Positions 5,398 through 51,280 of a stretch of 64,000 bases of DNA are shown in pieces. This DNA comes from Escherichia coli. Lineage in GTDB: Bacteria > Pseudomonadota > Gammaproteobacteria > Enterobacterales > Enterobacteriaceae. The notes below the pieces were generated by a model. It did no database searches and was not told the origin of the DNA. It worked only from the letters and a program-made list of their open reading frames with translations. Position numbers and translations under genes: made by a program. The DNA is taken from the NCBI RefSeq assembly GCF_036507355.1, contig NZ_AP027877.1. The stretch is one strand, 5' to 3'. Position 1 is the first letter of the stretch; every line of letters starts with the position of its first letter.

Positions 5398-5490
5398 GGT
5401 GAGGTGGCCGAGAGGCTGAAGGCGCTCCCCTGCTAAGGGAGTATGCGGTCAAAAGCTGCATCCGGGGTTCGAATCCCCGCCTCACCGCCA
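5398..5490 (+). tRNA. serV: tRNA-Ser (anticodon GCU)
   Basis: 93-nt sequence ggtgaggtggccgagaggctgaagg...ctcaccgcca with long variable arm and anticodon loop ctGCTaa. Confidence 0.93.
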
Positions 5491-5493
5491 TTT

Positions 5494-5570
5494 GCATCCG
5501 TAGCTCAGCTGGATAGAGTACTCGGCTACGAACCGAGCGGTCGGAGGTTCGAATCCTCCCGGATGCACCA
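5494..5570 (+). tRNA. argV: tRNA-Arg (anticodon ACG)
   Basis: 77-nt gcatccgtagctcagctggatagagtactcggctACGaaccgag...ggatgcacca. Confidence 0.93.
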
Positions 5571-5634
5571 TCTCTTACTTGATACGGCTTTAGTAGCGGT
5601 ATCAAAAAATCTGCAGTAAAGTAAGTTTCCCGAT

Positions 5635-5711
5635 GCATCCGTAGCTCAGCTGGATAGAGTACTCGGCTACGAACCGAGCGGTCGGAGGTTCGAATCCTCC
5701 CGGATGCACCA
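5635..5711 (+). tRNA. argY: tRNA-Arg (anticodon ACG)
   Basis: Identical 77-nt tRNA-Arg copy. Confidence 0.93.
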
Positions 5712-5773
5712 TCTCTTACTTGATATGGCTTTAGTAGCGGTATCAATATCAGCAGTAAAATAAATTTCCCGAT

Positions 5774-5850
5774 GCATCCGTAGCTCAGCTGGATAGAGTA
5801 CTCGGCTACGAACCGAGCGGTCGGAGGTTCGAATCCTCCCGGATGCACCA
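5774..5850 (+). tRNA. argZ: tRNA-Arg (anticodon ACG)
   Basis: Identical 77-nt tRNA-Arg copy. Confidence 0.93.
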
Positions 5851-5952
5851 TATTCTCCGTAATCATCAGTGATGATGGTTAAGAAGGATTTTCTTACTTG
5901 ATATGGCTTTAGTAGCGATATCAATATCAGCAGTAAAATAAATTTTCCCGAT

Positions 5953-6029
5953 GCATCCGTAGCTCAGCTGGATAGAGTACTCGGCTACGAACCGAGCGGT
6001 CGGAGGTTCGAATCCTCCCGGATGCACCA
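5953..6029 (+). tRNA. argQ: tRNA-Arg (anticodon ACG)
   Basis: Identical 77-nt tRNA-Arg copy. Confidence 0.93.
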
Positions 6030-9595: not shown

Positions 9596-9610
9596 TCAGT
9601 GGAACAAAAG

Positions 9611-9645
9611 AAGCCGGGCAGGTGACACCACCGCCCGGTTTTTTT
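9611..9645. terminator. Stem-loop terminator shared by convergent luxS and the HD-kinase gene
   Basis: aagccgggcaggtgacaccaccgcccggttttttt; hairpin followed by a T-run on the + strand. Confidence 0.65.
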
Positions 9646-10756
9646 ACCTTTCAATCACCCGATACTCCACGCTATGTGCTTCATCAGGTTGAGGAACTTC
9701 CAGCCTTGAGGCCATCCGCATCACGACCGCTTCAGGAACTGCATACTCGCGTCTGGCATTTTGCTGCTTCCATTGCGCCCATGGCACTTCAAGATAAACG
9801 ATTTTTACTCGTGCGCCGTAAGCCGTAAACAGGCTGATGAGCTGGCTACGCAGCTGGCGGGTAATGTTCGTTGCATTCCAGATGAACGGCTTTTTCTGGC
9901 GTAAAAAAACGCGCGCCTCTTCTTTTGCCTGTTGCACAATACGCCCGGTGGCGGTTTTGTCGTCCGGACTGGCATTGATTCGCCGCCGCATATCATCAAG
10001 GCTGATAACGTCCATTCCTTGGCACTGTTCATTGATATAGCGATCTTTGCCCATACCCGGTAAGCCACAGAGCAAAATAACCTCAAAAGGTTCAGCCTCC
10101 CAGGGAACAAAATCAGGAGAACTTTGCTCATGGGTCAGGTAATGCCAGCGTGCGGAATCAGACACGAACGAGCGCACTTTTCCCCAACACTGTTGCTCCT
10201 GGCAAAACAGCTCGAACAGATCGATGCGTTCCAGCATTGATTGCCGATCCGGGCTTTGGCGACCAAGCAGATCGGCACGAGCAAGCAAAGCGAGCAGACG
10301 CGTGTCGATGCGCATTGCAGCCGTGAGCAACAAACGCTCCGGTTCCGGACGTTCCAGTAACCATAGCGGTAACCCATGCAGACGCACCAGCGCAACAATT
10401 TGCTCGCGTAGCACGAACGGCGTAGGGATATCGCGCCATAAAATTTGTCGGGCCGTCAGCTCGCCCCGGCGTGCGTGGCCAGGCGACTGAATACGTCCGT
10501 TTTCCTTCACGGTAGTGCTGCGCTTTTCAACGTCATGCAATAACGCCGCCGCCCATAAAACTTCCTGCTGTTGAGCGGGGAGTTGCTGGAATACTGGCTG
10601 AGTAACAAGGGCGTTAAGCACCATTTCGGTATGCACGCCGACGTCACCTTCACCATGATGCTCCGGGTCTTGTGGCGTGTGATGCATCTCCTCAACCCAA
10701 CTGAAACGCTGGCGTAGTGTCGACCAGCGTTTATCGTCGGTAAGCTGCCAAATCAT
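9644..10756 (-). CDS. HD-domain phosphohydrolase fused to a P-loop polynucleotide-kinase-like domain (putative nucleic-acid end-healing enzyme)
   Basis: 370-aa ORF; N-terminal HD motifs (HH at ~33-34, H42, HD at ~74-75 in [10 protein letters not shown]); C-terminal Walker A GLPGMGKD (~231-238) and FIWNATN kinase-like motif; overlaps the upstream ligase gene by 4 bp. Confidence 0.7.
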
Positions 10757-11460
10757 GACTGTTCTCCATAAGCGAACTCATGGGCCATCCGCGCCCGTTG
10801 CCAGTGTCGTTTCCAGTGCACAGTGGTTTTGACATGATTTTTGCGCACATACTTGAAGACGTTATGCGAAAAGTCAGCGACGGAAAACGCATCACGATTC
10901 CGGCTGACAATGCCTTCCAGAGTACAGGGTTGCCCGGTTTGTGTATCCCAGGGATCGAATGCGCCGCGCGCATTGGTCAGCGCCAGAAAATCACGTTGCC
11001 AGTTTTTTTCATCATTCCCCGGCTGCGGGCCGGAGATTTCGGGAACGCAGGGGAAATCAAACAGGGCGGCGTAAAACTGCACCTCTTCCCAGTTCAGCCA
11101 CATATCCTGGCAGCGAACGGCAAACAGGTAAAAGTCCTGTTCCAGCGCGCGGTATTCAATGGAATGAACGGCGTAGAGATTTTCACCAAACAACTCCAGG
11201 TCGCCGAGATCGTTTTTCAGCAGTTGCCAACGCTGGCGAATTTTATAGGTCCATGCCGACTGCGTAGGCGCAGCATGGGAACGGGCAAACACACCGTAGC
11301 GGTTAAGGCAGTTATTTTCGCCGTCGAGTTTTTCTGTGTGCACCAATTGCGTGATGGCCTGTAAATCCTGCCAGTAATCGGCGTTAATGCGGTCATCGCT
11401 GGTGGTGCCAGGGGAGAAAGGATAATGCCAGGTTCTCCCGTATTTCCGTTGGGTATTCAT
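10753..11460 (-). CDS. Minimal ATP-dependent RNA/DNA-ligase-like nucleotidyltransferase (Rnl2-like NTase module)
   Basis: 235-aa ORF with ligase motifs I TEKLDGEN (candidate adenylylation lysine K44), III LFGENLY, IV LEGIV, V FKYVRK. Confidence 0.7.
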
Positions 11461-11685
11461 AATAATCCATTATTTTGTGTGTAATAAATGTACGCCCGCG
11501 AGGGTGCGAGTTATGGGGTTAAAAGAAAAATGTGAGTATCACCCGCGAAAGCGAGGGCGAAGGAAAAAGAGAATTAACAACCTGAGCGAATGCTCAGAAC
11601 CGGTTAATGGTAAATGGAAGAGTTTGGGGCGGCGAAAAGATACACCGAATGAGAGGATAAAACAACCGTTTACAGAATGAGCAAA

Positions 11686-11712
11686 TAAAAAGGGAGCCGC
11701 AGCTCCCTTTGA
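11686..11712 (-). terminator. Rho-independent terminator downstream of emrB
   Basis: Minus-strand gggagctgcggctccc hairpin followed by tttttatttg, 6 bp after the emrB stop. Confidence 0.7.
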
Positions 11713-11717
11713 CAACC

Positions 11718-25153: not shown

Positions 25154-25361
25154 GATTCGTATTTCCGTTTAAAATGAAGATACGGCGCGATGATACGCGT
25201 CGGGTTGTCTCTCTGTTGATACAGAGATACTAGATGTAGTTGAAAAAAGATTCAACCACACAAGATATGGGAATTTTAGATTGATTTCGCCACCGGTGAA
25301 TGGCTCAACGGGGAAGGGGATTTTGTGTTTTTTTGCCGGGCGCATACCCGGCAACAGCAAA

Positions 25362-25793
25362 TTACATCCGCATGGAAACGGCCAGACGGTTAAAACAATT
25401 CATCAGCCCGATGGCAAACGTTAAGTCGCTGATTTCTGCTGCGCTGAAATGCTCAAGCAAAGGCTGATAAGCCTCGTCTTCCGCATGGGTTCTGGCAATA
25501 TCGGTCACTGATTCCGCCCATGCCAGCGCCGCTCGCTCGCGTTCATCAAAATGATGGCTTACGCGCCAGCCTGCCAGGGCGTCCAGTTTGTGTTGTGGCA
25601 CACCGGATTTGCGCAATGCTTTGCTGTGCATCTCCAGACAAAATGCGCAGCCGTTGATTTGCGAGACGCGCAAATAAATTAACTCCATCAACGTGGTATC
25701 CAGCGTGCTATTTTCCAGTGCCGTTTTGGCCTGCACCAGTGTGTTATACACTGCCGGGCTAAGTTCGTAGTAAGGCTGACGTAATGTAGTCAT
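25362..25793 (-). CDS. Carboxymuconolactone decarboxylase family (AhpD-like) protein
   Basis: 143-aa ORF with CxxCxxxH signature in SQINGCAFCLEMHS. Confidence 0.75.
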   Translation of the reverse strand: MTTLRQPYYELSPAVYNTLVQAKTALENSTLDTTLMELIYLRVSQINGCAFCLEMHSKALRKSGVPQHKLDALAGWRVSHHFDERERAALAWAESVTDIARTHAEDEAYQPLLEHFSAAEISDLTFAIGLMNCFNRLAVSMRM

Positions 25794-25880
25794 ACAGTTT
25801 CTCCTCTTATTAACGCCCGCAATGTAGCACTATAATGGACTGCTAAAGAGAGCCATAAATTACCTAAAAAAGCAGACCAT

Positions 25881-27215
25881 ATGCCACGTTATCAGGATAT
25901 CGCCCGTCAGTTAAAAACGGCTATTGAGCAAGGAGAACTGAAACCTGGCGCAAGGCTACCCTCGAGCCGTACCTGGTCGCAGGAGCTGGGTGTCTCTCGA
26001 TCCACTGTCGAAAATGCTTATGCTGAGCTGGTGGCGCAGGGATGGCTGGTCAGGCGGGGACAGGCGGGTACCTTTGTCAGTGAGCAGATACATCCGCAAC
26101 AGTCTGCTGTGGATGTCGTGGCTTTTGCTGGTGAAAGTCAGCAGCCGCTGCCTTTTCAGATGGGGCTACCTGCACTTGATCTTTTTCCGCGTGAATTGTG
26201 GGCGCGGGTGATGGGCCGCCGTCTGCGTACCCAGACGCGTTTTGATTTGGCATTAGGCGATGTCTGCGGCGAGGCGGCCTTGCGCGAGGCTATTGTTGAT
26301 TATTTACGCGTTTCACGTGGGATTGATTGTCAGCCAGAGCAGGTCTTTATCACTCACGGTTATGCGGCCTCAATGGCTTTAATTCTGCACGCTCTGGCGC
26401 AACCGGGAGACGGGATGTGGATGGAAGATCCCGGCTTTCCGCTGATTCGCCCGATTGTCACTCGCCACGGTATGGAAATTTTACCTGTGCCGGTTGATGA
26501 CAACGGACTGGATGTCACAAGCGGAATACAAAATTATCCTGATGCGCGTTTTGCCCTGATTACTCCGGCACACCAAAGCCCGCTGGGTGTGGCACTCTCT
26601 TTAGCGCGTAGGTATCAGATACTGGAATGGGCAGAGCGTAGTCAGGCATGGATTATTGAAGATGATTACGACAGTGAGTTTCGCTATCACGGTAAGCCGT
26701 TACCGGCACTAAAAAGTCTCGACGCGCCGCAGCGGGTGATTTATGCCGGAACATTCAGCAAAGCGCTATTTCCTGCATTGCGCTGTGCGTGGCTGGTGGT
26801 GCCGGTGGAGCAGATTTCGCAATTCCGGCAGCAGGCGTCACTGGAACCATGTGCTGTACCCGTACTGTGGCAGAACACACTGGCAGATTTCATCCGTGAG
26901 GGGCATTTCTGGCGGCATCTGAAGAAAATGCGCCAGCATTATGCCCAGCGACGGCAGTGGATTGAGCAGGCACTTACGCAGCAGGGATTTCAGGTTGTGC
27001 CGCAAAAAGGCGGTATCCAGATGGTGATCAAACTAGCAGGTAATGACGTGACATTCGTGCATAAAGCCAATGCTGCTGGTCTTGCCGTACAGGCACTTAG
27101 CGACTGGCGTATCCGCTCAAGCGAGGACGGAGGATTATTGCTCTCGTTTACGAATATCGTTAGCGAAAGTATGGCGCGACAGGTAGCACAGCAATTGCGC
27201 AGTGCTTTAAATTAA
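25881..27215 (+). CDS. MocR/GabR-family transcriptional regulator (GntR wHTH + PLP aminotransferase-like domain)
   Basis: 444-aa ORF; N-terminal RLPSSRTWSQELGVSRSTVENAYAELVAQGWL; C-terminal fold-type I region with GTFSKALFP (candidate PLP lysine). Confidence 0.8.
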   Translation: MPRYQDIARQLKTAIEQGELKPGARLPSSRTWSQELGVSRSTVENAYAELVAQGWLVRRGQAGTFVSEQIHPQQSAVDVVAFAGESQQPLPFQMGLPALDLFPRELWARVMGRRLRTQTRFDLALGDVCGEAALREAIVDYLRVSRGIDCQPEQVFITHGYAASMALILHALAQPGDGMWMEDPGFPLIRPIVTRHGMEILPVPVDDNGLDVTSGIQNYPDARFALITPAHQSPLGVALSLARRYQILEWAERSQAWIIEDDYDSEFRYHGKPLPALKSLDAPQRVIYAGTFSKALFPALRCAWLVVPVEQISQFRQQASLEPCAVPVLWQNTLADFIREGHFWRHLKKMRQHYAQRRQWIEQALTQQGFQVVPQKGGIQMVIKLAGNDVTFVHKANAAGLAVQALSDWRIRSSEDGGLLLSFTNIVSESMARQVAQQLRSALN

Positions 27216-27364
27216 TAACCCCGAAGCCAGGCTTCGGGGTCCTATAAGACTGGTGACCAGGGCAAAATCCCCTGATGCGCTATGTTTTTCAGGCCTGTAG
27301 GCGGACAAGGCGTTGACGCACTGAGTACTTTTCAGAAGTCAGGCTACTGCTTGTCATCGTCTCA

Positions 27365-38146: not shown

Positions 38147-39238
<1,092 letters not shown>

Positions 39239-39460: not shown

Positions 39461-40307
39461 TTACAAATAGAGATAGTTCGGCAGTTCTCCTGTTTTCCCT
39501 AAAAGAAGAGCGCTACGCCCAGGAATGTTGATATTTAGAGTTCCGCCTTTAAGCGTAAATACTTTACCAGGGGGAATACTTTTGCGTGTATTATTAATAA
39601 TAATGTTAACGCTATTACTCCCCATATTTTTATATATTCCTGGTTGCAATTTGTTAGGCCAGGTACCTTCAATTTCTTCGTTTCCTTTATTTATTATAAC
39701 TAGTCCGTCATGAGGAGAGTGATTAATATTCACAGAATCCCCACGACTAAAGACCAGAATGTTTTTAGTTGCAAATACACCCTCAAATGCGCTCCATATT
39801 CCTTCTTTATCTATATATAATGCGTGGAATTCATTGTAGAGCTGCTGATAGGTAGAGCAACCTTTATTAAGCCACGCCCACCGCCGACACGCGTGGACCC
39901 ATCATCATTTTTAATCTCAGTCGTTGATTTTAATACCTGACCATCCCAGTAAACTAAAGGCCTGCTGAACGGGAGAGCGGCCATATATGCCATTGCTAAT
40001 TGTTCATCTTGTTGATGGTTAAATAGAAAGTCATTGAAAAGATTGCCATTGTTAGGAAAATCGTGGTTAATGTTAATCAATATCCGTCTTTCTGATGGGA
40101 TGCTTGAGATTGTGGAACCCGGTTTTGATGCAAGGGTTTGGAGATCGCCACCAAATGAAAAGGCTTTTATCGTCTTCATGAGCAATGAAAAATCAATGGC
40201 GCTTAAATCATCTCTTTCATAAAGTAGCGATGACATTTGTTGTTCATCCAACTGGCAAGTTACCAGATATTCCATGTAATTCATAACGGCTTTTTCATGA
40301 TATTTTG
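39461..40307 (-). pseudogene. Downstream fragments of an alpha-amylase-like (ygaQ-like) gene, separated from the 5' part by IS1
   Basis: Two short minus-strand ORFs (39461..39733 and 39811..40284) in different frames continuing the gene interrupted at 40308. Confidence 0.55.
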
Positions 40308-41075
40308 GGTGATGCTGCCAACTTACTGATTTAGTGTATGATGGTGTTTTTGAGGTGCTCCAGTGGCTTCTGTTTCTATCAGCTGTCCCTCCTGTTCAGC
40401 TACTGACGGGGTGGTGCGTAACGGCAAAAGCACCGCCGGACATCAGCGCTATCTCTGCTCTCACTGCCGTAAAACATGGCAACTGCAGTTCACTTACACC
40501 GCTTCTCAACCCGGTACGCACCAGAAAATCATTGATATGGCCATGAATGGCGTTGGATGCCGGGCAACAGCCCGCATTATGGGCGTTGGCCTCAACACGA
40601 TTTTACGTCACTTAAAAAACTCAGGCCGCAGTCGGTAACCTCGCGCATACAGCCGGGCAGTGACGTCATCGTCTGCGCGGAAATGGACGAACAGTGGGGC
40701 TATGTCGGGGCTAAATCGCGCCAGCGCTGGCTGTTTTACGCGTATGACAGGCTCCGGAAGACGGTTGTTGCGCACGTATTCGGTGAACGCACGATGGCGA
40801 CGCTGGGGCGTCTTATGAGCCTGCTGTCACCCTTTGACGTGGTGATATGGATGACGGATGGCTGGCCGCTGTATGAATCCCGCCTGAAGGGAAAGCTGCA
40901 CGTAATCAGCAAGCGATATACGCAGCGAATTGAGCGGCATAACCTGAATCTGAGGCAGCACCTGGCACGGCTGGGACGGAAGTCGCTGTCGTTCTCAAAA
41001 TCGGTGGAGCTGCATGACAAAGTCATCGGGCATTATCTGAACATAAAACACTATCAATAAGTTGGAGTCATTACC
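40308..41075 (+). mobile_element. IS1 insertion sequence, copy 1 (768 bp, with target-site duplication)
   Basis: Starts ggtgatgctgccaacttactgat, ends ...gttggagtcattacc; insA-like ORF 40363..40638 and insB-like ORF 40557..41060; flanked by atattttg direct repeats (40300..40307 and 41076..41083). Confidence 0.95.
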
Positions 41076-42488
41076 ATATTTTGGGTTAAATAAGTTAGTG
41101 TTGTGTAATCGCTCATTATAATTTTTAAGCGGTGGGGTTATTGATCTTTCTATTTGTTCATGTTTTGAGTGTTTTGCTGCATCATAACGTAAACCTCGTA
41201 CGCCATATTTTCGCATTTCACGAACGTATTGATTTTGCAGCATAATAACCTGGTCACTTTTGGGGGTTGTTTTAGGCATTCCATTTAAACGCTTTTCTTT
41301 TAATGCATGGAGGTTTTCCCATTCATCCTTAGAGATGTTATCTTTACTTGCTTCGAAGTCTTTTGCAGTGAGATGTATATCTTCTGGATGGATTTGTTTA
41401 CGTTCTTTTGTTACTGGATCGATAATAAATGGAACCAAAACCTGACCTTGCCAATAGCCAGGGATACCACCTTCTATATCTTTACTGATCTTCGCTCGTA
41501 TATCAGCAGAGGGATAATCCAGGTCATTTTTACCACTACCCCCGATTCCCATAAAGTTAAAGGTATAATCAGGAATGATATCGATACCAAATTTTTTAGC
41601 ATCTTTAACCAATGCGATAAAATCCTGCAAATCTCCCATTGGATTATGGATGGTACAAAGATCTTCGGGTTGATAAGCGTGAAACCAGTAACCTTTTTCT
41701 TCTTCGGGAGTTTCTGGTCCGTCGGCACGGAAAGTTGTCACTGGAGGGATTTGTATATACCCATAATGGCAACGTGCAAATTCAGACATATTTTCTCTGA
41801 TTTGCTGGTAGGTGGCATTAAAAGCATGAAGAATCGCTTCGCCAGGTTTTTTGGGGGTGATGATTTCACATTGTGATTTCTGAACAGCAGTAAGAGATTT
41901 ACGCTCAAGTGTTTGCCGTAGATGTTCTGGATTGATTAGTATTTTAAATGTTTCTTGCTGTCCGGAAGGTGACGTCACGTTAATATTATATACATCGGCT
42001 GCCAGCTCATAGTCAGGAATGTTAATAGCATATGCAACATATTTATCTTTTGGGGAGGGTTTGTCAGATATAATGTGGGTGAAATGTTCAGCAGGACCAT
42101 ACTGGTGAACCCCCTTGTTATCTTCTCTTTCATTCATTGTATCTCTTTGATAAATCCATGTTTTTCCTTCTCCTATCCTGTCTGGCGCTGTAATACTACG
42201 CTGTGCAGCTTTATTCAGTTCACGGTAAGTTGTATCTGGAAAAAGGGAAATTTTATAATCGTTTTTTAACAGATCATTAATGATTTTTTCTGCGTGAAAA
42301 GTTGATATAATTTCTCTGTCTTTTAAATCCTGAGGATAAACTCCACAAGCATTAATAATATTTGTTACACAGTTTAGATATTCTAATGTATTTAATTTGG
42401 AATTTAGATCCCCGTCAGTAATGTTCCATGATAACAATGTGGGGTTGTCGATAGGTAAATTTCTTGGTCCTGGTTTTATAGAAAACAT
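41076..42488 (-). pseudogene. 5' portion of alpha-amylase-like (GH13, ygaQ-like) gene disrupted by IS1
   Basis: ORF 40995..42488 carries GH13-like motif GVRGLRYDAAKH; its last ~27 codons read into IS1. Confidence 0.7.
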
Positions 42489-43047
42489 AATAACGTTCCT
42501 CTAATGGTAGAGTAATATGATGTATACGGAGACATAAAAATGTTTAATTGTTGTGAAAGTAATTGCAAACAGATGTCCTATTTTTATCCAATATTTATAT
42601 GGAAAAGGATAATGCTTAAATCTGTTTTTTTAATTATCGATGTGGTCTGGAGAGGCAACTGTCAAAAATCGCTCATACGAAACTAATTATTAGCAGAATA
42701 AGTTCTATAAAAGAATATATTGCTATATGAAGTTTATTTTTATGGAGTGAAAAGTAACAGATATCATAATGATGCGAAAACTCTTCAGTTAATGTAATAA
42801 ACTTATATTATTAGATACAAAATCATTACAAAGTATCATTGAATCGATGATAACTATAGACAGTGTTAATTATTAACATTTGCTTGTTGACTGCGAGTAT
42901 CGACTTTGCGAATGGAGGCGATGTCGGGTTTTATGTCGCATGTATTGACGACCCAGGATGGATGAGAACGCATAAAAATCTGTTATTTACATCATAAGAT
43001 CATCATGTTTATTGCGTGGTTTATAAGTATTGTTATTGCATACTTAA

Positions 43048-43123
43048 GGCCCTTTAGCTCAGTGGTTAGAGCAGGCGACTCATAATCGCTTGGTCGCTGG
43101 TTCAAGTCCAGCAGGGGCCACCA
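43048..43123 (+). tRNA. ileY: tRNA-Ile2 (anticodon CAU/lysidine type)
   Basis: 76-nt ggccctttagctcagtggttagagcaggcgactCATaatcgcttggtcgctggttcaagtccagcaggggccacca. Confidence 0.9.
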
Positions 43124-43873
43124 AATCATCATTCATGTATCAGGAAGAGTTAAGGGTACAAGGGGTACTCGATGGCGGTCTATATTTCATGACTAACGCC
43201 ATTTAAAGGAAGAAGTGCGGTGGGTGGTTTCGAATGAGGGCTGGTGTTTTGGTACGTGGCACGCCACTGCAATGTATTTATCCATCAGTACTCATTCAAA
43301 AGTACCTGGAAAAAATGCCCGCTATGCCAAGCGGGCAAATTGCTTACATGTGGAATTAAGTAATTAACGATAAAGCCAGAGTATTATCATTTATTATACC
43401 CATTCATTTAATCAGGTTAATTACTCAAATCACTGAACTATTCTCTGTTCGCTCACTGATGATGAGTGAGTACCACAACCAATGTATTAGAACAATGCCG
43501 TAGAGTAAGGATGAAATGTCTCTACCACACCTTAAACATCTACTACTGACTAGAACACCCGCCGCAGGTAGATGAGTTTTGTGAGCGTTACAGGAGCGTG
43601 GCTATGCTCATTAACCAACGCTATTGAGATATAAATTTCTAACACTTGAAAAACGATTTTCACTAATAAATTATAACGGGTGTTTTTTATCATACAGCGA
43701 AATAACTTTTTGTTTATTAAATTTAACATTCTTGTGCTAATTTAATTAAAAAGTCCATGCGTAGCATGTGAAGCAGTTAATGCCAGCAATTGTCTCAAAT
43801 GAGCGATTTTTTATAGTGACAAACAATAATAACATTAAAAATAGCCATGTAGACATTAACTGAGGAATAGACA

Positions 43874-45223
43874 ATGTTAATTAATAAAAGCAACGGATTT
43901 AACGCTAGCGCAGTTTTGGGTAGTGGAAATTATAATGAAAATAAATCTTCTAAACACATGGAGCTACTAGCTCATAGTATTGTAAAATTAATTTGTAAGG
44001 AAGCTGCATCAGAGACGTATCGCGGTGCTCTTGAAACTTTACAAAAAATGATGTCTGAATGTAAATATAAAGAAGGCAACGCCTTTGTCATTATGGGTGC
44101 TGGAGGGCAATTAAAACGTATTAAATATGATGTTGATGAAAATAAATTAAAAATATTCAACATATACTTTGATAATAATTACGAGGTAGTTACTGATGGT
44201 GAGCCTGACGTAGTATGTTTAAGCAAGCAGGTCTGGGAAAATCTTCTCATTAAATTAAAACCGGAGATTAAAGAAAATGTGTTTTCTGAAAATAACAAAT
44301 TATCGAGAGAAAATAATGTTGATCAGTATGTTCAATCCGCTAAAAGAAATGAACAGGCCCTTTTCGATAATATAATAAAAAGTGATTTTCATGTTGCTTC
44401 ACTTCAGCCAGGTAGAACACGTAGTGTTATTTCAGAAACGCCGCCAAATGACTGTATGGAATCACGTAATTCATATGAAAACCAAATAGATGAGATTTCA
44501 TCTTTGTCAGAGTCAAAGGAACACCCTATAGATATTCAAGAAAAAACAGATGCGTTTGTGAATGAGTTCAAGGGGATATTATTTGATCAAAATGGAAGGT
44601 CTTCAGAGTTTCTACTTAATTTTTATGAATGTTGCTATGTGTTTTTACCAAGAGCGCAGCCTCAGGATAAAATCGAAAGCTATAATTCAGCACTGCAAGC
44701 TTTTTCCATCTTTTGTTCATCTACGTTGACACATAATAATATAGGCTTTGATTTCAAATTATTTCCAGAAGTCAAGCTGTCTGGAGAACATCTTGAAACG
44801 GTATTCAAATACAAAAATGGCGATGATGTCCGGGAGATAGCCAAAATTAACATTTCTCTCCAAAAAGAAGAGGGTGGTTTATATAATTTACGTGGATTGG
44901 ATTTTAAGGGATGCTTCTTTTCTGGACAGAACTTCAGTAACTATGATATTCAATACGTGAACTGGGGAACGTCATTGTTTGATGTTGATACTCCGTGTAT
45001 TTTTAATACGCCTGCTAACAATGAGAGTTATGAAAAATCATTAAAACCTGTAAGCGAAAACGGTTTAAATGGAGTCTTATCTGATCGTATTAAAAAAATA
45101 AAAATGATCACGGGTGTGGCACCATTCGATGATATTTTATTTATGGATGATGACTTTGATGATAACTCCCCTGAGGATGGTCCCGTTGAGAATATTCCTG
45201 TTATGAATAGTCCTCTTGTATAA
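43874..45223 (+). CDS. Hypothetical protein, AT-rich, with C-terminal pentapeptide-like repeats and acidic tail
   Basis: 449-aa ORF; visibly AT-rich; NLRGL/DFKGC/FFSGQ/NFSNY/DIQYV/NWGTS pentad periodicity; ends MDDDFDDNSPEDG; hairpin ggggctacgttttcatgtaacccc ~150 bp after the stop. Confidence 0.6.
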   Translation: MLINKSNGFNASAVLGSGNYNENKSSKHMELLAHSIVKLICKEAASETYRGALETLQKMMSECKYKEGNAFVIMGAGGQLKRIKYDVDENKLKIFNIYFDNNYEVVTDGEPDVVCLSKQVWENLLIKLKPEIKENVFSENNKLSRENNVDQYVQSAKRNEQALFDNIIKSDFHVASLQPGRTRSVISETPPNDCMESRNSYENQIDEISSLSESKEHPIDIQEKTDAFVNEFKGILFDQNGRSSEFLLNFYECCYVFLPRAQPQDKIESYNSALQAFSIFCSSTLTHNNIGFDFKLFPEVKLSGEHLETVFKYKNGDDVREIAKINISLQKEEGGLYNLRGLDFKGCFFSGQNFSNYDIQYVNWGTSLFDVDTPCIFNTPANNESYEKSLKPVSENGLNGVLSDRIKKIKMITGVAPFDDILFMDDDFDDNSPEDGPVENIPVMNSPLV

Positions 45224-45649
45224 AGTTCTAAAAGCAGTTTTCAATGATAAATAAATGGCTATTTTTACGAAGAGATAATAACGTAGATTGAAACAATATG
45301 TATTATTGATTGAGTAAATGGGATTATTCTTCACACTACATCCATTTTAGTGTCACTACCAAAGAAAAAGGGGCTACGTTTTCATGTAACCCCTTGATTT
45401 ATTTGGTGGGCTGGCAGTGACTGAATTGGTGCTGTAATTGGTTGAAATATTTCATCTAATGTCTGGTTCAACTTTCCTTAGCTGCCTGAAAGTTTTTTGA
45501 TCTCACCCAGTAATAACAGCGTTACGGTGCACCACGCCTGACTGAAGAACTGCGTGCTCAGGGTTACCACTTCAACGTAAAACCGTGGCAGGAGGTCCGG
45601 ACTGAAAAAACTGCTCAGGACATCATCGGCAGGGAACGCACTGCTAGTC

Positions 45650-45830
45650 TGTAAACTGAACCGACTGGGGCGCAGTATGTGGCATCTTGTCGTGCTGTTG
45701 GAGGAGCTGTGCGAACGTGGTATTAACTTTCGTGCTCTGGCCCAATCTATATTTGCCCAACAATGGGGGGACGAATGCTGTAAAAGTAAAACAATCTGCG
45801 ATCTCAAAGTTATTGTGTGATTTTTATGTG
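45650..45830 (+). pseudogene. Remnant of a Pin/Hin-type serine invertase (pinH-like)
   Basis: Translated fragment [37 protein letters not shown] resembles the invertase core (...WKLDRLGRS...RGI.F.SL...); frame breaks upstream. Confidence 0.55.
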
Positions 45831-46149
45831 AGCAGAAGATATTCATCAGAAACGATTATGTAAATCATTTTATTTTGCCAACGGCCTCATTGTCGAAAGA
45901 AAAGAATACGCCCGTGTTTCCTGAATAGATTGACTTTTTTATCTAACCACACTTCAGCGCACTGCGTTTAAAAAATGCCTCATTCTTATGCGGAATATCA
46001 TCATTTCATCATGATGTCTTTGATGAGCGGTGAACACAATACACTTGCGCTGTCTCTTCAGGATGAATCCCCTGGTCTGGTGCCTGTGGGCTGATGTTGC
46101 AGCAAAGCTAAGGTCGCTTAAACGCTACTCAGTATTCACTTTTCAGAGG

Positions 46150-47653
46150 ATGAAATTTATGAACAGGACCAGTCCCTATTATTTTCGCCGCTCAGTACTT
46201 TCCTTATTGATATCTACCTTAATATATGCCCAGCCCGGGATGGCGGCCTTCACTACTAATGTTATTGGTGTGGTAAACGATGAGACTGTAGATGGCAACC
46301 AACGAGTAGATGAACGAGGTACAACAAATAACACTCATATTATCAACCATGGCCGGCAGGAGGTCTATGGTGGGATATCTAATAGTAGTATTATTGAAAC
46401 TGGTGGCGAGCAACTAGTATCAATCCATGCCGATATTAACGGGCAAGCTAATAATACAACCATTAATGGAGGCAGACAGTCAATTGAGTACGGAGGAATT
46501 TCTACTAGCACGATAATCGAAAGTGGCAATCAATATGTTCATAAAGGTGGTACCAGCAATGACACGACAATTAAGGGCGGTACTTCACGCATAGAGGGGG
46601 GGACTGCAAATGGAACAATCATTGATGGTGGTAGCCAACAAGTAACAACTCAGGGGCATGTTGACGGTACAACGATAAATAAGTCTGGCTCTCAGGACGT
46701 AGTACAAGGAAGTCTGGCAACGAACACAACCATAAATGGTGGTCGACAGTATGTTGAACAGAGCACAGTAGAAACAACAACCATTAAAAATGGCGGTGAG
46801 CAAAGAGTATATGAGAGCCGTGCGCTGGACACGACGATTGAAGGCGGAACTCAGTCTCTGAATAGTAAGTCAACGGCAAAAAATACACAGATCTATTCTG
46901 GTGGCACGCAAATTGTTGATAACACCAGCTCCTCGGATGTTATTGAAGTTTATTCCGGTGGCGTGCTTGATGTTAGTGGTGGTACGGCAACAAATGTTAC
47001 CCAGCACGATGGTGCAATTTTAAAAACTAACACTAACGGTACGACGGTGAGCGGTACGAATAGTGAAGGTGCATTCTCCATCCACAATCACGTGGCAGAC
47101 AATGTGTTGCTGGAAAACGGTGGTCATTTAGACATAAACGCATATGGTTCGGCAAACAAGACGATTATTAAAGATAAAGGAACAATGTCAGTTTTAACCA
47201 ATGCTAAAGCTGATGCGACCCGAATAGATAATGGCGGGGTTATGGATGTTGCAGGAAACGCGACAAATACCATAATTAATGGTGGCACACAGAATATTAA
47301 TAATTATGGCATAGCCACAGGCACCAATATCAACAGCGGAACGCAAAATATCAAAAGCGGCGGGAAAGCTGACACAACAATTATATCCTCCGGGAGCCGG
47401 CAGGTTGTTGAGAAAGATGGTACGGCAATTGGCAGCAATATTAGCGCCGGAGGCTCGCTGATTGTCTATACCGGCGGTATTGCACATGGGGTTAACCAGG
47501 AGACGGGCAGTGCTTTAGTTGCCAACACGGGTGCAGGGACTGATATCGAAGGATACAACAAGCTCTCTCACTTCACTATTACCGGAGGGGAGGCTAATTA
47601 TGTTGTGCTGGAAAACGCTGGCTCATTAACAGTCGTCACTGGTTCCCGGGCAG
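46150..47653 (+). pseudogene. Autotransporter-adhesin passenger domain (ypjA-like), truncated by IS1
   Basis: Signal peptide MKFMNRTSPYYFRRSVLSLLISTLIYAQPGMA then repeated ...TTINGGRQ...GGT.. motifs; reading frame runs directly into the IS1 left end at 47654; no beta-barrel domain. Confidence 0.75.
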
Positions 47654-48421
47654 GGTGATGCTGCCAACTTACTGATTTAGTGTATGATGGTGTTTTTGAG
47701 GTGCTCCAGTGGCTTCTGTTTCTATCAGCTGTCCCTCCTGTTCAGCTACTGACGGGGTGGTGCGTAACGGCAAAAGCACCGCCGGACATCAGCGCTATCT
47801 CTGCTCTCACTGCCGTAAAACATGGCAACTGCAGTTCACTTACACCGCTTCTCAACCCGGTACGCACCAGAAAATCATTGATATGGCCATGAATGGCGTT
47901 GGATGCCGGGCAACAGCCCGCATTATGGGCGTTGGCCTCAACACGATTTTACGTCACTTAAAAAACTCAGGCCGCAGTCGGTAACCTCGCGCATACAGCC
48001 GGGCAGTGACGTCATCGTCTGCGCGGAAATGGACGAACAGTGGGGCTATGTCGGGGCTAAATCGCGCCAGCGCTGGCTGTTTTACGCGTATGACAGGCTC
48101 CGGAAGACGGTTGTTGCGCACGTATTCGGTGAACGCACGATGGCGACGCTGGGGCGTCTTATGAGCCTGCTGTCACCCTTTGACGTGGTGATATGGATGA
48201 CGGATGGCTGGCCGCTGTATGAATCCCGCCTGAAGGGAAAGCTGCACGTAATCAGCAAGCGATATACGCAGCGAATTGAGCGGCATAACCTGAATCTGAG
48301 GCAGCACCTGGCACGGCTGGGACGGAAGTCGCTGTCGTTCTCAAAATCGGTGGAGCTGCATGACAAAGTCATCGGGCATTATCTGAACATAAAACACTAT
48401 CAATAAGTTGGAGTCATTACC
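47654..48421 (+). mobile_element. IS1 insertion sequence, copy 2 (768 bp, no target-site duplication)
   Basis: Same sequence and orientation as copy 1 (identical InsA/InsB translations); flanks cccgggcag / gaggttttg do not match. Confidence 0.95.
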
Positions 48422-49239
48422 GAGGTTTTGTTATATATGTTGTTTCCAATATATTTTTCATTTGTCAAAATTTGATGTATTTTTGCACGAGTCCATAATG
48501 TTCCATTTTCTGCAGGTATGTTCTGTTCATTTAATCTCTCAGCAATAATGAATTCTGGGACGTTATTATCTATAAAGAGATCATATATTCTATTTACAAT
48601 TTTTATTTCATTTTTTGGTCCCGGAATTAATATTACCCTATCTGTTTGAATACTCTTTCTTTTGCGGAAACTCAATATTTCTTTAGCTATGCCATTTTCG
48701 TCTACTAAAAGACGTCTCAGCCCATAACCAGCCATACCGCCTTGATGATAACCAAGCTTTATTAAATTTACTTGCCCTATAAATACCTTTTCAGATAGAT
48801 TCCTGCTGTGATATGCAGCACTAGATCTTTTTATATTCAGTATAACAGAGGACTCTAAAGGGAAATCTTTAGTGGGTATAGGTTCGGAACAATATATAAG
48901 ATCTACACCATTTCTCTCAAATAGAAAGGAATAATATGCCGCTTCATCACTATTTTGAAAACGACCAAAACGGCTCACATCATAAAATAATACAGCCTGT
49001 ATATCTATTTTCTTTTGTTCTACATCGCTAAGTAACTGCTGCAAAGAATGCCTGCCTACGATACTGACTCCGCTCTTACCTGCATCATCGTAGGTATAAG
49101 CGATTTCCATATTGTTCTTTTCAGCATAATCTTTGATATATTCGGACTGATTATGTAAAGAATATTGCTGATGGTCGGTAGACATCCTCAAGTACTGCGC
49201 GACCCTAACTCTATGATTTTTTTCATTTTCGCTAGCCAT
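48422..49239 (-). pseudogene. Large serine recombinase, C-terminally truncated by IS1
   Basis: N-terminal resolvase catalytic motif VAQYLRMSTDHQ and following recombinase-domain sequence; ORF ends inside IS1 after ~272 codons; AT-rich. Confidence 0.7.
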
Positions 49240-49521: not shown

Positions 49522-50751
49522 TTATGCGGCAATAACTTTGCATTTTTGAGACGAAACATAGTCACTCCACCATTGCATGAGAACCACCCGTTCAGTGAGA
49601 TACTCTGCACGATTGTAGGCTGCAATTATTTCATCTTTCTTCGAGTGGGCAAGGGCGGCTTCTAAGACATCAGTCCTAAACTTGCCAGACTCCTCAGCAG
49701 CCGTTCTAGCAATGGATCGCATACCGTGAGCTACAAGCTCACCTCCGAAACCCATACGGATTATGGCCGCATTAGCTGTTTGTTCATGCATGTGATTGAG
49801 TGGAGCTTTGATACTGGGGAACACCCACTCTCTATGCCCGCTGATGACTTTCATTAAATCCAAAACTCGCAAAGCTTCTTTGCTCAGTGGAACTTTGTGA
49901 GGCTTCTTCATTTTCATAAACTCCGCCGGGATGTTCCACATGCCAGTTTCAATATCAATATCTGACCATCTTGTGCGAACAGCTTCACCTGGGCGAACCC
50001 ATGTGAGAAGTTGCCACTCAATCAGTAGCCTTGTTTCCAAACGGATAGAAGCATTGTTTAGAGCAACCAAGAAGCGAGGGAGTTCGGAAGGGGGTAATGC
50101 TGGCATATTCTGTTTTTTTGGCTTGCTGAACCGTTGCCCCAGGTTGTCTGCCGGGTTGAATTCTATGAGTTCTTCTGTTGCTGCATAGCGGAAAATTTCA
50201 TTCAGGCGGGATATGATGCGGCGAAGTGTTTCAAGGACACCTCGTTTTTCTATGGGTTCTAAATGCTGTTTAAGCATTTTAGGGCGAATCTCCTTAATTG
50301 GGGTATCACCCAATGTGGAAAAGATATTTCTCTCTAGGCTTCGCCAGATGTCGTTAGCATGATCTTGGGAGATGCCTGACGTTTTGACTTTCTCATCAAG
50401 CCACTTCTTGGCTACTGCTTGAAATGTATGTTCCGTGGCATCTTTCAGTGCATTGGCTTTTTGGTTGTTATGAACTTGGGGGTCTATACCATTTGTAAGC
50501 AACGACAAGTATTCATCACGTAAAGCTCGTGCCTTCGCAAGTGTAAGGTGAGGATAGGTTCCTAAGCTCACCTTAGTTCGCTTTTTGGTCACAGGCACTG
50601 CATATCTGAAATACCAATTTTTCTTCCCTCCCTTCGCCAGGGGAGCGATTCGCAACAGCAAACCATCGCCGTCAAAAAGGTTAACCTCTTTTTCGGCAGG
50701 TTTGGTGCTTTTGATTTCAGTGTCAGTGAGCTTCTTAGCGATTTTGGCCAT
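49522..50751 (-). CDS. P4-type tyrosine integrase adjacent to tmRNA
   Basis: ORF ...MAKIAKKLTDTEIKSTKPAEKEVNLFDGDGLLLRIAP...WYFRY...; C-terminal catalytic domain (HGMRSIARTAAEE); 166 bp from the ssrA 3' end. Confidence 0.88.
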   Translation of the reverse strand: MAKIAKKLTDTEIKSTKPAEKEVNLFDGDGLLLRIAPLAKGGKKNWYFRYAVPVTKKRTKVSLGTYPHLTLAKARALRDEYLSLLTNGIDPQVHNNQKANALKDATEHTFQAVAKKWLDEKVKTSGISQDHANDIWRSLERNIFSTLGDTPIKEIRPKMLKQHLEPIEKRGVLETLRRIISRLNEIFRYAATEELIEFNPADNLGQRFSKPKKQNMPALPPSELPRFLVALNNASIRLETRLLIEWQLLTWVRPGEAVRTRWSDIDIETGMWNIPAEFMKMKKPHKVPLSKEALRVLDLMKVISGHREWVFPSIKAPLNHMHEQTANAAIIRMGFGGELVAHGMRSIARTAAEESGKFRTDVLEAALAHSKKDEIIAAYNRAEYLTERVVLMQWWSDYVSSQKCKVIAA

Positions 50752-50917: not shown

Positions 50918-51280
50918 TGGTGGAGCTGGCGGGAGTTGAACCCGCGTCCGAAATTCCTACATCCTCGGTACTACATGCTTAGTCAGTCTTTACATTCGCT
51001 TGCCAGCTGCGGACGGACACGCCACTAACAAACTAGCCTGATTAAGTTTTAACGCTTCAACCCCAGGCAGGGCTTCCACGCGATCTCTTTTGGGTTTGAC
51101 CTCTCTTGATCCCCGTCCTAAGAGCGGAGGCTAGGGAGAGAGGGCTCTAAGCAGGTTATTAAGCTGCTAAAGCGTAGTTTTCGTCGTTTGCGACTATTTT
51201 TTGCGGCTTTTTACGAGGCCAACCGCCCCTCGGCATGCACCTTGGGTTTCGCAAATCCCGTCGAATCCAGAATCAGCCCC
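50918..51280 (-). ncRNA. ssrA: tmRNA (SsrA)
   Basis: Minus-strand reading starts ggggctgattctggattcgacggg and ends gttcaactcccgccagctccacca; encodes tag peptide ANDENYALAA (gcaaacgacgaaaactacgctttagcagct); 363 nt. Confidence 0.95.

Follow-up and report, generated by a model that had tools for sequence, protein, structure and literature searches.

Two identical direct IS1 copies around ileY in Escherichia coli as a probable substrate for recombinational loss beside the ssrA island

Two IS1 copies lie in the same orientation on either side of ileY in the window (the whole 64-kb stretch of DNA that was analysed), which raises the question of whether they form a unit that moves together or are separate acquisitions through which the DNA between them could be lost. 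It is very probable that they represent two copies of the same IS1 variant, acquired by separate events, and that the pair is a substrate for recombinational loss of the ileY interval. The window is an E. coli-type chromosome segment with the K-12 gene order from recA to yfiN, the recA gene itself being present. It is collinear with K-12 positions 2,742,762–2,823,868, differing only by IS1, two 2.1-kb inserts and the island, and, the gab–ypjA stretch excepted, its identity to K-12 is 98.4–99.8%. Two IS elements were found in the 64 kb, and this pair accounts for both IS1 copies. The features of the locus are as follows.

38147–39124, minus strand: glaH (csiD), the conserved gene to the left of the unstable region (NF002814 GlaH, 542 bits; K-12 synteny)
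39461–40307, minus strand: 3' fragment of a ygaQ-like gene of the alpha-amylase family (comparison with the intact 750-aa gene)
40300–40307, unstranded: left copy of the ATATTTTG duplication (alignment and string comparison; empty site in eight relatives)
40308–41075, plus strand: left IS1 copy, 768 bp, a simple insertion (insA 40363–40638, insB 40557–41060, A6C motif 40614–40620)
41076–41083, unstranded: right copy of the ATATTTTG duplication (alignment, string and empty-site comparison)
41084–42488, minus strand: 5' fragment of the ygaQ-like gene, the ORF of which reads on into IS1 and stops at 40995
43048–43123, plus strand: ileY, tRNA-Ile2 with anticodon CAU (ARAGORN label Met; the gene at this site carries a tRNA-Ile annotation in K-12 and others)
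43874–45223, plus strand: intact ypjCB, 449 aa (NF050179, 924 bits; PF17612 and PF17621, DUF5507 plus DUF5508)
45584–45751, plus strand: pinH-type serine recombinase remnant, a pseudogene (coordinates transferred from the locus of strain 100416)
46159–47653, plus strand: 5' third of the ypjA/ehaD autotransporter gene (1,495 of about 4,575 nt), interrupted by the right IS1
47654–48421, plus strand: right IS1 copy, 768 bp, identical to the left (A6C motif 47960–47966), without target duplication, at an old deletion junction
48422–49239, minus strand: 5' 818 nt of the large serine recombinase gene of the ssrA island, truncated by the right IS1 (resolvase/recombinase family matches; full protein 518 aa)
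49522–50751, minus strand: tyrosine integrase of the ssrA island, 409 aa (NF007246, 444 bits)
50918–51280, minus strand: ssrA (tmRNA), the attachment site of the island, 100% identical to K-12

Elements of the IS1 family are about 768 bp in length, have imperfect terminal inverted repeats of approximately 23 bp starting with GGT, and duplicate 8–9 bp of their target. The length and ends of both copies agree with this description, and the target duplication is found at the left copy only. Each copy begins and ends with GGTGATGCTGCCAACTTACTGAT and GGTAATGACTCCAACTTATTGAT, imperfect inverted repeats that match at 18 of the first 23 positions, and each encodes an InsA of 91 aa (PF03811 and PF12759) and an InsB of 167 aa (PF03400). 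In both copies insA, insB and the A6C frameshift site are intact, with the TTAAAAAAC motif sitting in the insA/insB overlap as expected for the −1 frameshift that yields the InsAB' transposase. Both are 99.5–100% identical to elements annotated as IS1A in other genomes. As originally predicted, the copies are identical and in the same orientation: alignment, repeat search and string comparison agree on 768 of 768 positions, both on the plus strand. Their starts lie 7,346 bp apart, leaving 6,578 bp between the copies. The identity extends by one base leftward, a coincidence, and by none rightward.

The left IS1 is flanked by an 8-bp target duplication, ATATTTTG, and eight related genomes carry the empty site, CTTTTTCATGATATTTTGggttaaat, in which ATATTTTG occurs a single time. 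Because of this duplication and these empty sites, the left copy is evidently a simple insertion into an AT-rich ygaQ-like gene of the amylase family, and the claim of an insertion with target duplication in an alpha-amylase-like gene is thereby borne out. Once the IS1 and one copy of the duplication are removed, the reconstructed gene aligns at 98.5% identity with its intact 750-aa counterpart in strain 100416, and the one gap, of 1 nt, corresponds to a 1-bp deletion near 39879, a frameshift in the 3' fragment.

When the left flank of the right IS1, CCCGGGCAG, was compared with its right flank, GAGGTTTTG, no target duplication was found. This element bridges the ypjA 5' fragment and the truncated serine recombinase gene of the ssrA-integrated island. 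In eight references the left flank runs on as ypjA (CCCGGGCAG followed directly by ttgatacg), and in eleven references the right flank runs on as the intact 518-aa recombinase gene; the recombinase fragment is 100% identical to the intact gene of two of the compared genomes, which extends past the breakpoint. Since the duplication is lacking and both flanks continue in references, the right IS1 must mark an earlier IS1-associated deletion, and the absent duplication is explained as the product of this later event. The deletion took the 3' two-thirds of ypjA together with the distal part of the island, of which only the integrase and one half of the serine recombinase gene are left. Both genes cut at this scar, ypjA and that of the serine recombinase, are therefore pseudogenes. 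The route may have been either an IS1 adjacent deletion or IS1–IS1 recombination, which are indistinguishable on sequence alone. The exact integrase protein of the island is widespread and always adjoins ssrA. The absent duplication and the past deletion at this element had been overlooked in the original prediction.

Between the two copies lie the 5' part of ygaQ, ileY, ypjCB, the pinH remnant and the 5' part of ypjA. The three items that had been placed there beforehand (ileY, a 449-aa gene and an autotransporter fragment) are thus confirmed, and correspond to tRNA-Ile2, an intact YpjCB and the 5' third of ypjA. The ileY gene, labelled Met by ARAGORN because of its CAT anticodon, is identical to K-12 ileY at 75 of 76 positions, the single-base difference being a T at position 6, and at 76 of 76 to same-site tRNA-Ile genes in other genomes. 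The ypjCB gene is split into ypjC and ypjB in the K-12 annotation. The pinH remnant is annotated in the homologous stretch of four other genomes, strain 100416 among them, and the segment that contains it (45224–46029) is 97.8–98.8% identical across all four. A 26-nt inverted repeat lies around ileY (42658–42683 and 43792–43817), with only 81% complementarity; we estimate that chance alone would give 12-nt seeds several times in 17 kb. The interval has a GC content of 34–38%, against 50%, and is collinear with K-12, in its native place between glaH and ssrA. The comparison of its presence and absence across strains, which had been proposed as a check, showed it to be contiguous in 2803 of the 5426 complete E. 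coli genomes, with its ileY–ypjA part missing at nine IS1-bridged junctions. Its description as accessory DNA therefore holds as far as low GC and variability among strains are concerned, but this is the usual chromosomal content of the site in about half of the complete E. coli genomes.

Two intact direct IS1 copies around a low-GC cargo recall Tn9, and InsAB' could in principle use the outer ends, so that the 8.1-kb IS1–interval–IS1 unit might be a composite transposon, either one by which ileY, ypjCB and the ypjA fragment reached this site or one that is actively mobile as a unit. Against this, the left IS1 has a duplication of its own and the ygaQ-like gene continues on both sides of it, whereas the outer flanks of the unit, GATATTTTG and GAGGTTTTG, form no duplication and belong to different genes (ygaQ and the island recombinase). 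The interior has the order, orientation and place that it has in K-12 and in the 2,803 genomes, and the plasmid records that hold at least 80% of it are only mislabelled chromosomes of 4.8–4.9 Mb; no genuine plasmid carrying the interval was found. Thus, two IS elements do surround a cargo, but the unit-wide duplication in a single target is missing and the cargo is not away from its native site. Arrival as a composite transposon is largely refuted by the lack of a shared outer duplication, the native collinear position and the absence of a true plasmid copy; overall, a Tn9-like unit is very improbable here, and the transposon-like behaviour suggested by the original prediction is not supported.

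The nucleotide identity of the copies would also fit local copying, in which both arose from one intramolecular replicative transposition event. Such an event leaves either one IS at a deletion or two inverted copies around an inverted segment. The copies here are direct, however, the interval has the K-12 orientation, and the complete direct duplication of the left IS1 is typical of simple insertion, all of which makes a single-event origin unlikely; a local hop from the right IS1 into ygaQ is possible, and would still be a separate insertion event. Identical 768-bp repeats are, in addition, a classic cause of short-read misassembly, and one copy could have been misplaced. Yet all four junctions are specific and coherent, the 8-bp duplication is perfect and lies at a verified empty site, the two gene truncations are of a kind found in many finished genomes, and the sequence bears no sign of a chimera. 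An assembly artefact is accordingly extremely improbable.

Because the copies are perfect direct repeats of 768 bp, 6,578 bp apart, RecA-dependent recombination has a substrate in them. Exchange within one molecule would release a 7,346-bp circle containing one IS1, the 5' part of ygaQ, ileY, ypjCB, the pinH remnant and the ypjA fragment, and the chromosome after excision would retain one IS1 that joins the 3' fragment of ygaQ to what is left of the recombinase gene. A tandem duplication would result from unequal exchange between sister chromatids. We infer these outcomes from what is established for IS elements and from analogous natural junctions; products of deletion or amplification by this very pair were not observed. 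The identical direct repeats support the predicted loss of ileY, ypjCB and the ypjA fragment by homologous recombination, with which the 5' two-thirds of ygaQ would also go. Such a loss should be tolerated because the genes removed are all pseudogenes or non-essential, and E. coli B and other strains live without ileY; the ileY–ypjA part is absent from nine junction classes, including that of REL606. AUA decoding is presumably covered by ileX, the second tRNA-Ile2 gene.

The predicted instability of the region is evident in other strains, in which about eleven distinct IS1-bridged junctions tie this ssrA island to points between glaH and ypjA, nine of them without ileY. For instance, a single IS1 joins the island remnant directly to ygaQ or glaH, with ileY, ypjCB and ypjA absent, in strain 600, the EC556 clone, CP043852.1, 3PT, PSJ-23, PCP07083, GCA_027273855.1 and REL606. 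Related IS1 junctions are present in A30, which has likewise lost ileY, and in two strains that retain it, MDK6L1 and TKEC21-59. The bridging elements are 93–100% identical to those of the window and occur in both orientations, which marks the events as independent. These natural single-IS1 junctions are equally compatible with IS1 × IS1 recombination and with transposase-mediated adjacent deletion, and cannot show which of the two took place. In CP043852.1 the single IS1 lies between ygaQ and the recombinase gene, and in NC_010468.1 the locus is intact; these two "ATCC 8739" genomes were considered as a deletion derivative and its parent, and the pairing was rejected, as their ssrA islands differ.

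Each of the three IS1 junctions of the window was absent from all 5,426 complete E. coli genomes; junction matches that appeared 100% covered span 500–950 bp and reflect an IS1 nearby at a different position. The 29-mer of the left junction was absent from GTDB representative genomes and JGI metagenome contigs, and exact-protein look-up returned no match for the YpjCB protein or for the ORF in which the recombinase is fused to IS1. Other strains do have the exact GlaH and integrase proteins, but none of them is nucleotide-identical or has the IS1 copies of the window, and a close relative turned up in none of the collections. One bolder proposal is that the unit is a functional composite transposon able to move the AUA-decoding tRNA-Ile2 gene and ypjCB to plasmids or other genomes; another is that the recurrent IS1-bridged loss of ileY–ypjA beside this island reflects selection and not mere opportunity. 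These are highly doubtful; if there were such a mobile ileY unit, its recipients would gain extra capacity to translate AT-rich foreign genes.

The IS1-flanked ileY interval is real and ordinary, and IS-mediated loss of ileY is already known, independently, in many E. coli strains. The locus is a further case of IS1 as portable homology within the known variable ssrA–glaH region and is mainly of value for annotation, although cultures or assemblies of this strain could prove heterogeneous through the predicted 7,346-bp deletion or a tandem amplification. In E. coli the loss of ileY, which is one of two AUA-reading tRNA genes, is recurrent, and ileY is supplied on helper plasmids in B-derived hosts, which is relevant to the expression of AT-rich genes.

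Several known systems resemble this arrangement. Tn9, in which direct IS1 repeats flank cat, likewise has two direct IS1 copies around a few kilobases, but the unit in the window has no duplication around it, its cargo lies in native chromosomal context, and no copy exists elsewhere. The classical IS1-promoted adjacent deletions of the gal region, reportedly described by Reif and Saedler, resemble the right IS1 in that IS1 is kept at a duplication-free junction with DNA missing on one side, and resemble the ssrA–glaH region in that breakpoints are nested and variable among strains; judged from the junction sequence, the right IS1 is inseparable in mechanism from IS1–IS1 recombination. Recombination between homologous IS copies accounts for 76 of 110 rearrangements in the Lenski long-term evolution experiment (LTEE), including IS1–IS1 deletions of about 8 kb (PMC4173774), and an IS1-flanked tandem amplification (arn) is known from E. 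coli B (PMC11253626). In both cases, as in the window, identical direct IS1 copies are the portable homology, and the LTEE deletions, scored "RRE-IS1", left one IS1 at the junction (PMC4173774); those events were observed experimentally, whereas in the window the substrate alone is seen. A close likeness is with E. coli B, which, like E. coli W, lost ileY through a separate IS-mediated deletion (PMC3032704). The ssrA–glaH locus of REL606/BL21 has the same ssrA island (99.8% nucleotide identity over the integrase gene stretch), an IS1 where the island meets the glaH side, and the same genes at stake (ygaQ, ileY, ypjCB and ypjA). In E. coli B, however, the deletion is complete, one IS1 joining the island's second ParB gene to the region upstream of glaH, whereas the window has kept the interval between its two IS1 copies but less of the island.

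The IS1 copies at 40308-41075 and 47654-48421 are identical at 768/768 positions and both lie on the + strand (alignment, repeat search and string comparison), as the original prediction had stated, and thus form perfect direct repeats with a start-to-start distance of 7,346 bp. A perfect repeat of 768 bp far exceeds chance origin, and the 64-kb window contains no IS1 copies beyond these two. Each copy has the terminal inverted repeats of IS1, in which 18/23 first positions match, and encodes a 91-aa InsA (PF03811, PF12759) and a 167-aa InsB (PF03400), with the frameshift site TTAAAAAAC in the insA/insB overlap.

Between recA and the yfi genes, the window runs collinear, in inverted orientation, with positions 2,742,762-2,823,868 of E. 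coli K-12. Identity is ~96% in the gab–ypjA stretch and 98.4-99.8% elsewhere. The features around the IS1 pair are as follows.

Features around the IS1 pair (window coordinates, strand)
38147-39124, - strand: glaH
39461-42488, - strand: ygaQ-like amylase-family gene, interrupted by the left IS1
43048-43123, + strand: ileY
43874-45223, + strand: ypjCB, intact, 449 aa
about 45584-45751, + strand: remnant of a pinH-type recombinase
46159-47653, + strand: ypjA, initial 1,495 nt
47654-48421, + strand: right IS1
48422-49239, - strand: 518-aa serine recombinase gene, initial 818 nt
49522-50751, - strand: tyrosine integrase
50918-51280, - strand: ssrA

The CAT anticodon of the tRNA at 43048-43123 leads ARAGORN to label it Met; the gene matches K-12 ileY at 75/76 positions, and tRNA-Ile genes annotated at the same site in other strains at 76/76. 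The base differing from K-12, read as T at position 6, gives a U6-G67 wobble in the acceptor stem, and this allele is also present in eight other genomes. Elsewhere in the window, serV is followed by four tRNA-Arg(ACG) genes (5398-6029), as in K-12, with spacer lengths unlike those of K-12 as judged from overlapping partial alignments. Two 2.1-kb inserts relative to K-12 were also observed: one between luxS and emrB (9600-11717), whose two genes resemble an RNA-repair-type pair, with products of 370 aa (AAA_33 kinase-like domain, PF13671, at the C terminus) and 235 aa (RNA ligase, PF09414); and one between ygaM and nrdH (25268-27363), where divergent genes encode a 143-aa member of the carboxymuconolactone decarboxylase family and a 444-aa GntR/aminotransferase-type regulator.

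The left IS1 is a simple insertion with an 8-bp target duplication, as the empty target CTTTTTCATGATATTTTGggttaaat, with one ATATTTTG, is found in eight related genomes. The junction is formally ambiguous because the target continues GGT and IS1 also starts GGT; the true element start, GGTGATG, is fixed by the identical right copy, which is preceded by a ypjA-derived G. When the left IS1 and one duplication copy are removed, the rebuilt ygaQ-like gene and its intact 750-codon counterpart in strain 100416 are 98.5% identical. A frameshift near 39879, due to a separate 1-bp deletion, adds to the IS1 insertion, and the gene has therefore been inactivated twice.

The right IS1 lacks a target duplication, its flanks being CCCGGGCAG and GAGGTTTTG. 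The left flank runs on as ypjA in eight references (…CCCGGGCAG/ttgatacg…, slash at the junction), and the right flank is preceded by further serine recombinase sequence in eleven (…aatttagat/GAGGTTTTG…). The right IS1 is therefore the scar of an earlier collinear deletion and joins truncated ypjA to the truncated serine recombinase gene. Strains that retain the island at ssrA carry two ParB-like genes, and often a type I restriction system, after the integrase and recombinase genes; the deletion removed ~3.1 kb of ypjA and the distal part of the ssrA island. It may have come about either through adjacent deletion by the transposase or through recombination between two IS1 copies present earlier. 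Rearrangement of the locus by IS1 has thus already happened, and the right IS1 is direct evidence of it. This scar was not mentioned in the original prediction.

A synthetic query, in which the outer 1.5-kb flanks of the two IS1 copies were fused, matched genomes in which both sides adjoin with a single IS1 between them. These junctions were mapped and annotated.

IS1-bridged junctions (left breakpoint in window coordinates; IS1 orientation; right side)
strain 600: 41611; +; recombinase gene, 283 bp beyond the window's portion
EC556/571/581: 41930; +; recombinase gene, 211 bp beyond the window's portion
CP043852.1: 41475; +; recombinase gene at 48960
3PT: 39752; +; recombinase gene at 48732
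PSJ-23: 39367; -; recombinase gene, 211 bp beyond the window's portion
PCP07083: 41463; -; integrase gene at 49585
GCA_027273855.1: 39375; -; past the ParB genes
REL606 (E. coli B): 39415; -; past the ParB genes

Three other junctions are of a related kind. A complex IS5/IS1/IS3 junction is present in A30, from which ileY is also gone; ileY is kept in MDK6L1 (left breakpoint in ypjA at 47400, fused to ParB) and TKEC21-59 (left breakpoint in ypjCB at 44058, then IS3 and IS1). The bridging IS1 elements have 93-100% identity to those of the window and occur in both orientations, which indicates independent events. The predicted window product (breakpoints 40307 and 48422) lies within this natural spectrum. 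No close relative of the window's strain was found in database searches. Two records labelled E. coli ATCC 8739, which differ in length by 58 kb, were considered as a before-and-after pair and rejected, as their ssrA islands differ: NC_010468.1 has a P4-like island with ygaQ, ileY and ypjA intact, and NZ_CP043852.1 has the integrase–recombinase island, one IS1 and no ileY.

RecA-dependent exchange between the two copies would release a circle of 7,346 bp, with a single IS1 left behind, and unequal sister exchange would duplicate the interval. Loss would probably be tolerated, because neither the ygaQ-like gene nor ypjA is intact any longer, the function of ypjCB is not known and ileY-less strains exist; ileX, outside the window, presumably supplies tRNA-Ile2.

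The interval itself was not brought in by the IS1 pair. It occupies its native position and orientation by comparison with K-12, and 2,803 of 5,426 complete E. coli genomes contain 80% or more of it as a contiguous stretch (identity up to 98.1%). The GC content of ygaQ, the ileY intergenic region and ypjCB is 34-38%, against 50% for the window, and the interval varies between strains. The description "accessory DNA" is fair in the pan-genome sense, but not in the sense of cargo carried in by IS1. A composite transposon-like unit had also been proposed. No target duplication brackets the pair as a whole, and in the plasmid collection most of the interval occurs only in records of 4.8-4.9 Mb, which are evidently chromosomes filed as plasmids (three, H150-H152). 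There is thus no support for past movement as a composite transposon, and future transposition of the unit is only a formal possibility.

In two strains encoding the same GlaH protein as the window, homology to the window breaks off at most 3 nt from the 3' end of ileY. This gene seems to serve as a site of island integration or as a boundary of rearrangement. In one strain (L023, 6774-7299), ileY is followed by a CP4-like island that carries a toxin-antitoxin pair, CbtA/YeeU, and in the other (L017, 6775-7298) by unrelated chromosomal genes. A further record, NZ_AP027503.1 (pLR-25_3), is a circular 13,989-bp non-mobilizable "plasmid" reported with no replicon, relaxase or replication gene. 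Its sequence is a mosaic of pieces from the ssrA–glaH chromosomal locus: distal island genes, ypjA with an internal gap, part of pinH, IS1, 781 bp of ygaQ, IS3, an intA-like segment and a second IS1 in inverted orientation. The record may represent either a circle excised between IS elements or an artefact of assembly.

Instability of the IS1-flanked interval is thus a reasonable expectation, and the original prediction of a structurally unstable region is backed by the many natural analogue junctions and by published losses of ileY, which is missing from E. coli W and B via separate IS-mediated deletions (Archer et al., PMC3032704). In the long-term evolution experiment, 76/110 rearrangements were due to recombination between homologous IS copies, among them IS1-IS1 deletions of about 8 kb with one IS1 copy remaining (Raeside et al., PMC4173774), and a tandem amplification flanked by IS1 has been described in E. 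coli B (Maybin et al., PMC11253626). Such instability is textbook IS biology, and the same outcome has already been published for this locus.
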